IMG/VR virus record: IMGVR_UViG_2690316311_000019
DNA length: 64,000 bases
Origin: a virus
Taxonomy: Duplodnaviria; Heunggongvirae; Uroviricota; Caudoviricetes
Strand: one strand, 5' to 3'
This document shows, piece after piece, positions 32,627 to 63,496 of this stretch. A program made the position numbers and the translations under genes. Below the pieces are notes generated by a model. The model saw nothing but the letters and a program-made list of their open reading frames with translations, was not told where the DNA came from and searched no databases. How positions within the stretch are numbered: position 1 is the first letter of the stretch; every line of letters starts with the position of its first letter.

Positions 32627-32643
32627 TTTGCTCTAATAAATTG
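32627..32643 (+). promoter_or_regulatory. C1 operator (TTTGCTCTAATAAATTG) just after pacB stop
   Basis: 15/17 match to consensus. Confidence 0.6.
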
Positions 32644-32699: not shown

Positions 32700-32796
32700 T
32701 CGGTTTATGCTTATCAGGCACCTCATTAAAACGGGTGCCGGGATTGGCCTCCCGCTTAAGTCTAAGGCGATACAGACGCCGCTCGCGTCTTTTTTT
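32700..32796 (+). ncRNA. Candidate C4-type antisense RNA (anti-SD GCCTCCC, duplicate GTCTAAGG box, intrinsic terminator)
   Basis: GCCTCCC at about 32747 complementary to RBS GGAGGC at about 32949; hairpin GACGC-CGCTC-GCGTC + T7 at 32775-32796; no credible ORF. Confidence 0.35.
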
Positions 32797-32961
32797 GTAT
32801 CGGCGTACACGCACACCTCTACAATGGTGGGCTGTATGGGGCTACCTTCGGGTAGGCTGGTTACCTTGGACGCCAGTAAGGCCAACTCCGTACAGTCCAC
32901 CGCCAGCAAGATTGGTCTCTTCTGCGGTGGTTACATACCAACGTCTAAGGAGGCTGCCAAT

Positions 32962-36325: not shown

Positions 36326-37357
36326 ATGTCCAATTTACTGACCGTACACCAAAATTTGCCTGCATTGCCGGTCGAGGCAACGAGTGATGAGGTTCGCAAG
36401 AACCTGATGGATATGTTCAGGGATCGCCAGGCGTTTTCTGAGCATACCTGGAAAATGCTTCTGTCCGTTTGCCGGTCATGGGCGGCTTGGTGCAAGTTGA
36501 ATAACCGGAAATGGTTTCCCGCAGAACCTGAAGATGTTCGCGATTATCTTCTATATCTTCAGGCGCGCGGTCTGGCAGTAAAAACTATCCAGCAACATTT
36601 GGGCCAGCTAAACATGCTTCATCGGCGGTCCGGGCTGCCACGACCAAGTGACAGCAACGCTGTTTCACTGGTCATGCGGCGGATCCGAAAAGAAAACGTT
36701 GATGCCGGTGAACGTGCAAAACAGGCACTAGCGTTCGAACGCACTGATTTCGACCAGGTTCGTTCACTCATGGAAAATAGCGATCGCTGCCAGGATATAC
36801 GTAATCTGGCATTTCTGGGGATTGCTTATAACACCCTGTTACGTATAGCCGAAATTGCCAGGATCAGGGTTAAAGATATCTCACGTACTGACGGTGGGAG
36901 AATGTTAATCCATATTGGCAGAACGAAAACGCTGGTTAGCACCGCAGGTGTAGAGAAGGCACTTAGCCTGGGGGTAACTAAACTGGTCGAGCGATGGATT
37001 TCTGTCTCTGGTGTGGCTGATGATCCGAATAACTACTTGTTTTGCCGGGTCAGAAAAAATGGTGTTGCCTCGCCATCATCCACCAGCCAGCTATCAACTC
37101 GCGCCCTGGAAGGGATTTTTGAAGCAACTCACCGATTGATTTACGGGGCTAAGGATGACTCTGGTCAGAGGTACCTGGCCTGGTCTGGACACAGTGCCCG
37201 TGTCGGAGCCGCGCGAGATATGGCCCGCGCCGGAGTTTCAATACCGGAGATCATGCAAGCTGGTGGCTGGACCAACGTAAATATTGTCATGAACTATATC
37301 CGTAATCTGGATAGTGAAACGGGGGCAATGGTGCGCCTGCTGGAAGATGGTGATTAG
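36326..37357 (+). CDS. cre: Cre tyrosine recombinase
   Basis: 343 aa, MSNLLTVHQNLPALPV...; differs from canonical P1 Cre at a few positions. Confidence 0.95.
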   Translation: MSNLLTVHQNLPALPVEATSDEVRKNLMDMFRDRQAFSEHTWKMLLSVCRSWAAWCKLNNRKWFPAEPEDVRDYLLYLQARGLAVKTIQQHLGQLNMLHRRSGLPRPSDSNAVSLVMRRIRKENVDAGERAKQALAFERTDFDQVRSLMENSDRCQDIRNLAFLGIAYNTLLRIAEIARIRVKDISRTDGGRMLIHIGRTKTLVSTAGVEKALSLGVTKLVERWISVSGVADDPNNYLFCRVRKNGVASPSSTSQLSTRALEGIFEATHRLIYGAKDDSGQRYLAWSGHSARVGAARDMARAGVSIPEIMQAGGWTNVNIVMNYIRNLDSETGAMVRLLEDGD

Positions 37358-37374
37358 CCGTCAATGTATAATAA

Positions 37375-37391
37375 ATTGCTCTAATTATTTG
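37375..37391 (+). promoter_or_regulatory. C1 operator (ATTGCTCTAATTATTTG)
   Basis: Core ATTGCTCTAAT intact. Confidence 0.5.
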
Positions 37392-37407
37392 ATATTTATG
37401 GTGGCAT

Positions 37408-37719
37408 ATGAGAAAGGATTTCAACATCGACGGAAAATATGTAGTGCTGTCTGTAAGCACTAATATTCAGTCGCCAGCCGTCATTGTCACTGTAAAGCTG
37501 AGCGATAGAATGCCTGATATTGACTCAATATCCGTTGCGTTTCCTGTCAAAAGTATGCGTAGTGCTGAACATTTCGTGATGAATGCTACCGAGGAAGAAG
37601 CACGGCGAGGTTTTGCTAAAGTGATGTCTGAGTTTGGCGAACTCTTGGGTAAGGTTAACAATGTCCTTTCAATCAGTTCAGCAAGGTCCAAAGCATTAAC
37701 AGCTTCCATGATGAAATAA
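37408..37719 (+). CDS. cra: Cre-associated small protein
   Basis: 103-aa ORF between cre and ref. Confidence 0.45.
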   Translation: MRKDFNIDGKYVVLSVSTNIQSPAVIVTVKLSDRMPDIDSISVAFPVKSMRSAEHFVMNATEEEARRGFAKVMSEFGELLGKVNNVLSISSARSKALTASMMK

Positions 37720-37850
37720 AAAAAGCCTGGCAAGGAGCCAGGCTGCACAAAAGAGCGGGTTTGTATTCCGCATCCAATCAATCAAGAAGGAGTATAGCAG
37801 ACAGATACTGAAGTGAAAAAATGTGACTCACGATAAATAAAATATCTATC

Positions 37851-37867
37851 ATTGCTCTAATTAATTG
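37851..37867 (+). promoter_or_regulatory. C1 operator (ATTGCTCTAATTAATTG) overlapping a TATAAT -10 box
   Basis: Operator followed by TATAAT at 37869-37874. Confidence 0.6.
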
Positions 37868-37934
37868 ATATAATTGAGCCGCAGTTTTTGTCAACTACGA
37901 AGACGTTGCCATTACTTCACTCCTTGACATCATT

Positions 37935-37960
37935 GGCGGCCATTAGGCCGCCTTTTTTTT
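37935..37960 (+). terminator. Rho-independent terminator / attenuator (GGCGGCC-ATTA-GGCCGCC + T8) 7 bp upstream of ref
   Basis: Perfect 7-bp GC stem and T8. Confidence 0.6.
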
Positions 37961-37966
37961 GACCAT

Positions 37967-38527
37967 ATGAAAACAATCGAACAAAAAATTGAACAGTGCC
38001 GCAAGTGGCAGAAGGCAGCCAGAGAACGAGCGATCGCTCGGCAACGGGAGAAGTTGGCTGATCCGGTCTGGCGAGAATTTCAATATCAGAAAATGCGGGA
38101 TACTATCGACCGCCGTATCGCTAAACAGAAAGAGCGCCCACCAGCTAGCAAAACGCGGAAAAGCGCGGTAAAAATAAAATCTCGTGGCTTGAAGGGGAGA
38201 ACACCAACGGCGGAGGAACGGCGCATCGCCAATGCTCTTGGCGCTCTCCCCTGCATTGCCTGCTATATGCATGGAGTAATATCTAATGAGGTGTCTCTGC
38301 ACCATATCGCCGGTCGTACCGCGCCGGGTTGTCATAAAAAGCAATTGCCACTTTGTAGATGGCACCACCAGCATGCAGCACCGGCTGAAGTAAGAGCAAA
38401 ATACCCCTGGCTGGTCCCTGTTCATGCCGATGGTGTGGTTGGAGGCAAGAAAGAATTCACCCTGCTGAACAAGTCAGAGATGGAGTTACTGGCTGACGCC
38501 TATGAGATGGCAAACATCATGCACTAA
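37967..38527 (+). CDS. ref: Recombination enhancement function, HNH endonuclease
   Basis: 186 aa; HNH-like CIACYMH...HHIAGR...CRWHH. Confidence 0.85.
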   Translation: MKTIEQKIEQCRKWQKAARERAIARQREKLADPVWREFQYQKMRDTIDRRIAKQKERPPASKTRKSAVKIKSRGLKGRTPTAEERRIANALGALPCIACYMHGVISNEVSLHHIAGRTAPGCHKKQLPLCRWHHQHAAPAEVRAKYPWLVPVHADGVVGGKKEFTLLNKSEMELLADAYEMANIMH

Positions 38528-38569
38528 TAAATATATTATTTTTAATGATAAATGATTGACAACTGACAA

Positions 38570-39358
38570 GTGACTTCAGTCAGAATCATCACACGCCCGG
38601 TACGGATGGATCCCTTTTCAAATATTCCATGGACGGCACAGTCTGAGTACCGGGCGCTACCTTCAGTTGTATTGCTAAGCCGCCGCTGGTGGCTTTTCTT
38701 TTTTGTAGGGGGCGCTATGGATAAGAAAATATGCGTTGTTTCGATGAGCGTCGGCAAACCGGCGTCAATGACTGCTGCATGGATCAATAACGAGCTGATA
38801 ATGGCTGAGCGGACCAGCTACCCTGAACGCCGCCGCGATATGGAACTCCAGCTGCTGCGCGAATTGCGAGAAAAAGAGGAAAAGGGTTTTATCGTGCTGG
38901 TGGAAGAGGAAAACAGCTTTATTACTGGTCGAGTTGGCCAGCGTGTAAGGTTGCGCGATCCCTTCATGAACAGCAGGCCGGTACTAATTGAGGCAATGCA
39001 GATTTATAAGGAGCTGGAACGCCAGAAAGCAATCAAGTTACCGCGCAAGGAATCCGGCAAATACATCCTTCACAAAAGCATCTTCGATTCCGAACACGAT
39101 AAAAAAGGCGATGAATTTTTCAACATCAACTGGAGCGAAATAACGACAGAACATGTTCTGACGTTACTATGTTGCTTTGCGACGGAATACAACAACGTTG
39201 CCAGCGCCGACTACATCAGGGCAATGGCTGGAGAAGTTGAGGCCAATCAGGATACGTCGTTACTAAGTCCCCTAGTGAATATAATTCAAGCTACTCATGA
39301 AATTGCCGCGCGGAAAGTGCCTAAAGGTTCATTAACTGGTAAAGATAATTATCTTTAA
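38570..39358 (+). CDS. mat: Hypothetical protein in mat position (alternative start 38717)
   Basis: 262-aa ORF downstream of ref. Confidence 0.4.
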   Translation: MTSVRIITRPVRMDPFSNIPWTAQSEYRALPSVVLLSRRWWLFFFVGGAMDKKICVVSMSVGKPASMTAAWINNELIMAERTSYPERRRDMELQLLRELREKEEKGFIVLVEEENSFITGRVGQRVRLRDPFMNSRPVLIEAMQIYKELERQKAIKLPRKESGKYILHKSIFDSEHDKKGDEFFNINWSEITTEHVLTLLCCFATEYNNVASADYIRAMAGEVEANQDTSLLSPLVNIIQATHEIAARKVPKGSLTGKDNYL

Positions 39359-62918: not shown

Positions 62919-63496
62919 TTATTGCGGGGCGACTGGCCACTCAACATCCGATGCTACTGTTGTATCAACACGATTCAACAATACCCGATATGTCTTCCAT
63001 GCAGTCAGTAACGATGCCTCTTCCTCCGTCGCAATATCCAAATCTACGGCATCCTGAAGTGGCGCAATATGCTCACTGGCCATCTGCATCAGGCTGTTTT
63101 TTGTTTCTTCCGCCTTCCGGATCCGGAACAGTTTTTCTGCTTCTGCATCTTTCACCCAGGCTGTGCCGTTCCACTTCTGAAACTCCCCTTCCGGGGATAA
63201 CCAGGTGACATTTTCCGGTAATGGGCCAAGTTCAGAAATAAATAACGCGTCGCCGGAAGCCACGTCATAGACGGTTTTTCCCCGATGGTCTTCAACGAGA
63301 TTCCACGATGCCTCATCACTGTTGAAAACGGCCACGAAGCCAGCCGGAATATCTGGCGGGGCAATATCGGTACTGTTTGCAGGCAGACCTGTATGAGGTG
63401 GAATGTATGCATCACCTTCACCAATAAACTCATTGGTTCCAGCCAGTAGATTATAAATTTTTATGGTCCGTGATTGTTCACTCATTCTGAATGTCA

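Follow-up and report, generated by a model that had tools for sequence, protein, structure and literature searches.

The stretch of Caudoviricetes DNA analysed here (64,000 nucleotides (nt), IMG/VR record IMGVR_UViG_2690316311_000019, hereafter the window) represents a P1-type phage/plasmid. The region considered is the one that precedes its ref gene, where an intrinsic terminator hairpin lies between a promoter carrying an operator of the C1 repressor and the ref start codon. By every available comparative criterion this terminator appears to be real and functional, and we regard it as likely that it is a leaky leader terminator which damps C1-controlled transcription of ref and also blocks read-through from the upstream genes cre and c8.

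The locus upstream of ref

Over positions 37400-38600 the window shares 98.3% identity with phage P1 (AF234172 / NC_005856), and its identities with P7, RCS47, SJ46 and other Punavirus genomes range from 92 to 95%. The Ref protein shares 98.4% of its amino acids with P1 Ref. A 301-nt query around the ref control region found matches in 700 plasmid records, mostly of Escherichia coli, one of which (NZ_CP038378) showed 100% identity. The operator Oref and the promoters P2ref and P1ref are annotated at homologous positions in the P1 GenBank record AF234172, where the terminator is unannotated. The ref control region is thus already described in P1, and its recognition in the window is a correct rediscovery and no discovery. 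A paper by Windle, Laufer and Hays of 1988 (J Bacteriol 170:4881) reportedly speaks in its title of attenuator-antiterminator control of ref. The features of the locus are as follows.

36326-37357: cre, open reading frame (ORF)
37408-37719, plus strand: c8, the gene upstream of ref, from the ORF and the P1 annotation
37718-37743, minus strand: c8-proximal terminator, leftward-facing, GCCTGGC-AAGGA-GCCAGGC, with T7 on the minus strand only
37831-37837, plus strand: H-NS motif CGATAAA, read from the sequence; motif as in PMC4713147
37846-37851, plus strand: -35 hexamer CTATCA of the predicted promoter P2ref, from the P1 annotation; weak (3/6 match)
37851-37867, plus strand: C1 operator Oref (former Op1/Op2a), monovalent, ATTGCTCTAATTAATTG; annotated in AF234172
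37866-37874, plus strand: extended -10 element TGaTATAAT of predicted P2ref, from sequence and annotation
37881-37934, plus strand: leader of about 54 nt, comprising a 5' hairpin (37881-37909) and a mostly unpaired linker
37905-37911, plus strand: candidate antiterminator strand GTTGCCA, overlapping the -35 of P1ref
37906-37933, plus strand: predicted promoter P1ref (TTGCCA, 16 nt, TGaCATCAT), from the P1 annotation and a consensus scan
37935-37960, plus strand: intrinsic terminator/attenuator, stem GGCGGCC/GGCCGCC, loop ATTA, T8
37961-37969, plus strand: spacer GACCAT (6 nt) and the ref ATG, read from the sequence
37967-38527, plus strand: ref, 186 amino acids, RecA-dependent HNH nuclease, from the ORF list

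The gene directly upstream of ref, which the original prediction had called cra, is actually c8; in the P1 annotation cra lies upstream of cre. Upstream of the promoter, the 5' region of ref contains the motif CGATAAA, at which binding of H-NS was reported from electrophoretic mobility shift assay and chromatin immunoprecipitation (PMC4713147). In the same study, by Ronayne et al. (2016), ref was found to be repressed by C1 and was induced 73-fold upon C1 inactivation, with a peak later than that of other C1-controlled genes; ref activity was higher without C1 (PMC4713147).

Operator, promoters and terminator in two lineages

The 17-bp asymmetric site Oref matches the C1 consensus ATTGCTCTAATAAATTT at 15 of its 17 positions (two mismatches), aligns with the operator annotated in P1, and sits in the spacer between the -35 and -10 elements of P2ref, which bears out its original identification as a C1 operator. 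Sites of the C1 type with at most three mismatches number 15 in the window, as against 0.26 expected from shuffled sequences, and the operator core ATTGCTCTAAT is invariant, including in the loci of the second lineage described below. A perfect TATAAT is present at 37869-37874, as had been proposed; the proposed overlap with the operator does not extend to this hexamer, which starts two bases past it, and is confined to the TG of the extended -10 element (37866-67), formed by the last two operator bases. The P2ref -10 element shows low diversity across 62 unique related sequences, and judging from its position transcription would start near 37881. The regulatory protein Bof is said to be linked to ref regulation in the title of a paper by Schaefer and Hays (1990), and a co-repressor role of Bof/Lxc is likewise known to us from the title only.

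The hairpin at 37935-37952 consists of seven G-C pairs closed by a 4-nt loop, with a folding energy of -15.0 kcal/mol when taken alone, and is followed by eight T residues (37953-37960). The hairpin and its T-run stand as originally described; the gap to the ref ATG measures 6 nt (GACCAT) and not 7. Both strands of the 64 kb contain 20 hairpin and T-run motifs, among which the ref terminator is the second strongest. Motifs with at least seven T residues and a folding energy of -12 kcal/mol or below occur three times in the window; in 60 dinucleotide shuffles their mean number was 0.03, and none of the shuffles (0/60) reached -15 kcal/mol. The terminator (37935-60) is placed between the promoter, whose -10 element occupies 37869-74, and the start codon at 37967. 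A bidirectional function of the hairpin was considered and rejected, since on the minus strand the stem is followed by AATGATG, without a T-run. A search of the window for a second copy of the hairpin, such as one behind the resident ant gene, gave none, and no mapping of transcript ends or start sites in P1 was found in the literature searched.

No Shine-Dalgarno (SD) sequence is present in the 20 nt before the ref ATG (GCCGCCTTTTTTTTGACCAT). Among the relatives the spacer between the T-run and the start codon reads GCCAT, GACCAT or ACCTT, and neither an upstream reading frame nor an SD sequence is conserved.

Conservation was first assessed among P1-type relatives, for which 90 loci anchored on c8 were collected, 62 of them unique and used for the estimates of diversity. 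This family is shallow, and a scan of genome contigs contributed only three of its loci. The set was selected for the presence of a hairpin-like motif; within it, every sampled P1-type locus with ref keeps the hairpin, and the stem is GGCGGCC/GGCCGCC in nearly all of them. Nucleotide diversity in the stem (0.014) is below that of the remaining intergenic sequence (0.077), of third codon positions of c8 (0.165) and of the loop (0.27). Of the T-run, the first six residues are invariant in the 62 unique sequences, and the run comprises 7-10 T in ref-bearing loci and six in variants that lack ref. The loop reads ATTA, ATCA or TAAA in the former and GAAA, GCAA or TAAA in the latter. Changes of the stem in ref-bearing loci give G.U or U.G wobble pairs, the lone break (GGCGACC) being found in a ref-less variant, L004, from the E. 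coli plasmid pB1W1-p1. Such a pattern is that expected of a working terminator hairpin.

A tblastn search with Ref found Cronobacter phage JK004 (MZ188976; Ref 65% identical) and phage D6 (56%). JK004, three relatives from IMG/VR and one Salmonella plasmid make up a second lineage. The genes upstream of ref in the JK004-type loci differ from those of P1, and the order of the parts before ref is the same: a C1-type operator (ATTGCTCTAATAATTAT), TATAAT, a leader of 41-45 nt, the hairpin GACGGTC-TTCG-GACCGTC, T8 and the start of ref. The distance from T8 to the start codon is 10-13 nt, again without a clear SD sequence. Across 12 distinct stem sequences of both lineages 98.8% of the cells are paired, and five different loops were seen. 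Two stem pairs show compensatory changes between the lineages, one from G-C to A-U and the other from C-G to U-A, and further pairs vary by wobble. The JK004-type leader is largely unalignable with the P1-type leader. Comparison of the sequences thus ties the terminator to the C1-operator promoter and places it between this promoter and ref in all ref-bearing loci of both lineages.

The position of the terminator could also be explained in another way, namely that the hairpin is the terminator of cre-c8 and insulates ref, which would be transcribed mainly from P1ref, the transcripts from P2ref being irrelevant or abortive. P1ref, which is annotated in P1 as a predicted promoter, has its -35 element TTGCCA at 37906-11 and its TG-extended -10 element CATCAT at 37928-33, ending at 37933, so that its predicted start (about 37939-37942) falls inside the hairpin. 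The segment TGACATCAT is well conserved among the P1-type relatives, and pmgR is predicted to be laid out in a similar way, its -10 element abutting the hairpin that follows pmgQ. The c8-proximal hairpin (37725-43), the third strongest terminator motif of the window (-14.0 kcal/mol) and invariant in the 62 unique relatives, has its T-run on the minus strand only, so that rightward transcripts of cre and c8 should reach the ref terminator and probably end at 37960. In the JK004-type loci the upstream genes run straight into the operator and terminator without a terminator of their own. P1ref, however, is only a 9/12 match to the consensus and has no C1 operator, although ref is repressed by C1 (PMC4713147). 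No P1ref-like promoter was seen in the JK004-type loci, yet the order of promoter, terminator and ref is kept there, and a bypass promoter was therefore rejected as a conserved feature. In these loci, ref would be reachable only by read-through of the terminator. Moreover, pure insulation would be served equally well by a terminator upstream of the promoter, whereas both lineages have it downstream. Insulation as the principal function, with ref expressed from P1ref, is therefore unlikely. The suggestion that the hairpin ends only transcription arriving from upstream holds in part, as an additional role and for cre-c8 rather than cra.

The c8-proximal and ref-proximal terminators form an outward-facing pair that brackets the promoter block, and no minus-strand gene to the right of the c8-proximal hairpin is annotated in P1. 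A promoter-like site on the minus strand (38535-38562; TTGTCA, 16 nt, AATAAT, a 10/12 consensus match only) adjoins the Omat operator region. It points leftward, antisense to ref, and transcription from this site would run into the minus-strand terminator at 37743-37718.

The leader and a candidate antiterminator

A transcript starting near 37881 would contain a leader of about 54 nt and, if stopped at the terminator, would be 77-80 nt long and not about 70 nt, as originally estimated. The minimum free energy fold of the leader has a z-score of -3.8. In a series of co-transcriptional folds, as long as the 3' arm of the terminator is still unmade, GUUGCCA (37905-11) pairs with UGGCGGC (37934-40), which takes in part of the 5' arm; the gain is -7.7 kcal/mol. 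Since the strand at 37905-11 is partly shared with the 5' hairpin at 37881-37909, the leader would have a topology of the 1:2, 2:3 and 3:4 kind. The finished terminator is far more stable (closing-pair probability of 0.93 at equilibrium), which weakens the case for an antiterminator. For the window sequence, a competing helix that tunes read-through is plausible but weakly supported.

Little of the leader sequence is conserved between the lineages, and it varies within each as well. In the JK004-type leaders the only invariant block is AACTGTC, whose complementarity to the terminator's 5' arm extends over six of seven bases. Its pairing would gain 5.3-7.8 kcal/mol, compared with terminator energies of -10.6 to -11.2 kcal/mol, and equally strong pairing occurred in fractions of 0.30, 0.01, 0.03 and 0.06 of shuffled leaders. 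The barriers to refolding, by a crude direct-path estimate, are 7-12 kcal/mol in the JK004-type leaders and 6 kcal/mol in the window. These comparisons suggest that the case for an antiterminator is better in the JK004-type than in the P1-type leaders.

Two blocks that are among the best conserved of the P1-type leader, UGUCAA (37889-37894) and UUGACA (37924-37929), are complementary to each other. The JK004-type sequences ACUGUCA and UGACGGU resemble them, the 3' block in that lineage overlapping the 5' arm of the terminator, while the P1-type leader has about nine additional nucleotides (CATCATTGG) from the UUGACA block to the stem.

The leader contains a single ORF that crosses the hairpin, extending from a TTG at 37906 to a TGA at 37962 without an SD sequence; in P1, a difference of one nucleotide puts this ORF in frame with ref and fuses the two. 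Attenuation of the trp type by a leader peptide was rejected, as the ORF has no SD sequence, its frame is unconserved and the T-run varies from 6 to 10. No riboswitch or other Rfam family was matched at the gathering score near the ref leader, and the sub-threshold matches (suhB, RprA, rseX, MicA and others) are generic matches to terminators.

These properties bear on the possibility of a regulated switch, in which the terminator would be opened in the lytic phase, whether by a factor from phage or host or through translation of a leader peptide. Such a switch would agree with the topology of the leader, with the late peak of ref induction (PMC4713147) and with the attenuator-antiterminator control reportedly named in the title of the 1988 paper. 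The unconserved leader ORF and its missing SD sequence, the variable T-run and the lack of a match to a riboswitch or known RNA family speak against it. P1, moreover, is not known to encode an antiterminator protein. A regulated switch is accordingly the least probable of the readings considered here. A constitutive leaky attenuator is favoured over it because the leader has neither a conserved leader peptide nor a known riboswitch, although a phage or host factor may still take part.

Proposed control of ref and comparison with other systems

In the lysogen, C1 bound at Oref would block P2ref, with H-NS bound just upstream. Upon derepression, RNA polymerase would start near 37881 and transcribe the leader, and most of the P2ref transcripts would stop at the terminator, with its seven G-C pairs and U8, as an RNA of 77-80 nt. 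Only the fraction that reads through would carry ref, in a message without an SD sequence, and the leader strand able to pair with the 5' arm of the terminator may set the size of this fraction. The arrangement would amount to an in-built brake on a host-damaging nuclease. Rightward transcripts from cre and c8, whose expression is constitutive and takes place in lysogens, would cross Oref and be stopped by this terminator as well. Given that ref is repressed by C1 and that the only annotated C1-operator promoter next to it is located before the terminator, the ref message is most simply explained by read-through. The start site, termination efficiency, read-through as the source of this message and the role of the competing helix are what we infer from the arrangement. 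Ref is probably kept low by several layers, including C1, H-NS, attenuation and weak initiation of translation. Of the two options that had been put forward for the hairpin, an attenuator of ref or the end of a short C1-controlled RNA, the former is better supported, by the title of the 1988 paper, the logic of C1 control and the identical order of parts in the second lineage. The short RNA would be an unavoidable by-product, and no sign of its action in trans was seen.

Several observations weigh against damping of ref by a leaky terminator. P1ref could start inside the hairpin and bypass the terminator. Neither operator nor terminator was found before the Ref homologues of the D6 type or those of Enterobacter, Klebsiella and Vibrio, and ref of D6 has an ordinary SD sequence (AAGAGG). 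With regard to the competing helix, the gain of -7.7 kcal/mol is matched by 6-8% of dinucleotide-shuffled P1-type leaders, and the pairing is weakened without compensation in several ref-bearing P1-type variants (ATGGCCA, GAGCCA and GTGCCA in place of GTTGCCA). When P1 GTTGCCA was aligned by hand with JK004 ACTGTCA, both the 3' arm and the upstream partner compensated the two differences in the 5' arm. This three-way covariation was set aside, since unbiased pairwise alignments were ambiguous (24-480 co-optimal solutions) and left the homology unsupported; they tend to align ACTGTCA with P1 TTTGTCA (37887-93). Finally, ref is replaced by a convergent icd-ant operon, encoding a KilAC antirepressor, in 15 of 87 related loci (L003, L004, L005, L093 4480-6100 and 11 more). 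In these loci the junction lies inside the T-run, and the operator, the -10 element, the leader and the hairpin are kept. It thus appears that the module of promoter, leader and terminator can persist without ref.

The icd-ant operon at the ref-less loci is a second immI-like module. In these variants the leader RNA would lie antisense to the ant transcript at its 3' end. The ant transcript should run past the ref hairpin, where its own strand lacks a T-run, and end at the c8-proximal terminator. In the ref-less locus L004, a 13-bp deletion (aligned to window positions 37859-37941) removes half of the operator and the -10 element, and promoter and terminator appear to be decaying together.

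Alternatively, the module could be a small RNA gene in its own right, switched on by derepression, whose product of about 80 nt would act in trans or as an antisense RNA; ref would then be a passenger reached by leakage. The unit has its own promoter, a short predicted transcript of 77-80 nt and a strong terminator with a long U tail. It is kept as a whole in the icd-ant loci, where the RNA would be antisense to the 3' untranslated region of that operon. P1 also offers precedents in the c4 and isrK-like RNAs located after the operator Op51 and in a 'dicF-like' region with a terminator in the ban leader. Against this, the variable leader contains no conserved seed and matches no Rfam family at threshold. 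The complementarity of the leader to the rest of the window is at chance level, the best matches being 10-mers with E of about 3, and an antisense or trans target within the window was rejected on this ground. Retention of the unit in the ref-less variants is explicable by recombination at the boundary of the module, and in L004 both the promoter and the stem are decaying. A stand-alone small RNA gene is therefore very unlikely, and its stronger form, an autonomous gene kept when ref was exchanged for icd-ant, with read-through into ref as a secondary use, is highly improbable.

Through Ref, P1 lysogens show an increased sensitivity to ciprofloxacin, and lysogenisation is reduced (PMC4713147), so that the tightness with which it is restrained is biologically relevant. 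Added here are the presence of the promoter-terminator-SD-less start design in a second lineage, with compensatory changes in the stem, its absence from the D6-type Ref genes, and the survival of the module when the cargo at the locus is replaced. In the literature searched, no follow-up of the mechanism of read-through, whether by passive leak or by an antiterminator, was apparent.

Further features were noted at other sites of the window. The interval 16290-16355 corresponds to the annotated operator pair OpmgRa/OpmgRb (Op86a/b in P1, Op(sht a/b) in P7) and contains a weaker hairpin (CGTGATG..CATCACG followed by T6, -8.5 kcal/mol) after pmgQ. The predicted -10 element of PpmgR (16314-19) abuts this hairpin, so that transcription would begin within the hairpin and avoid termination there; the similarity to the ref arrangement that had been noted for 16290-16357 is superficial. 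In the leader of the ban operon (2203-2418) a strong terminator, GCCCATC-TTCG-GGTGGGC with T7 (2394-2418), lies about 165 nt beyond the bivalent operator Oban (2203-2230). This terminator falls within the region annotated as 'dicF-like' in P1, ahead of tRNA genes, and matches no Rfam family. Here too, a unit under C1 control has a terminator ahead of its genes. Gathering-level Rfam matches to isrK (32718-32795) and the C4 antisense RNA (32820-32907) follow closely on the C1 operator at 32627-32643, in the immI region. A further gathering-level match, to the family IS009 (192 bits), is located on the minus strand at 62956-63154. Between cre and c8, the sequence ATTGCTCTAATTATTTGATATTTAT (37375-37400) combines a C1-operator-like site (three mismatches) with a -10-like element and by eye closely resembles Oref and its -10 element; P1 has ATTGCTATAAT at this place, with no operator annotated. 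In the window variant, c8 may be under C1 control from this site.

Among the systems with which the ref leader can be compared, IsrK of Gifsy-1 is known for its dual short and long prophage transcripts. IsrK and the immI and ban leaders of P1 likewise consist of a repressor-controlled prophage promoter, a short RNA element and then coding genes. Unlike IsrK-type units, the ref leader matches no RNA family and has no conserved sequence that would hint at an independent RNA function. With the classical leader-terminator attenuators of the enterobacterial trp, pyrBI and his operons it shares a terminator between promoter and start codon and an upstream segment that could pair with the 5' arm while the 3' arm is still unmade. 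It differs from them in having no conserved leader peptide or ribosome-binding site, a helix of -7.7 kcal/mol against a terminator of -15 kcal/mol, and no evident sensing input.

The JK004-type ref leaders are like that of the window in their C1-type operator, TATAAT, short leader, 7-bp tetraloop hairpin, T8 and SD-less start, and differ from it in the stem sequence (by the two compensatory pairs), a shorter leader, other upstream genes and a more competitive candidate antiterminator. The ref region of P1 is the same locus, 98% identical, with the operator, the -10 element, the hairpin and the ref start at homologous positions; the window departs from it by a few substitutions and by the insertion of one nucleotide (GACCAT instead of GCCAT) between the T-run and the ATG.

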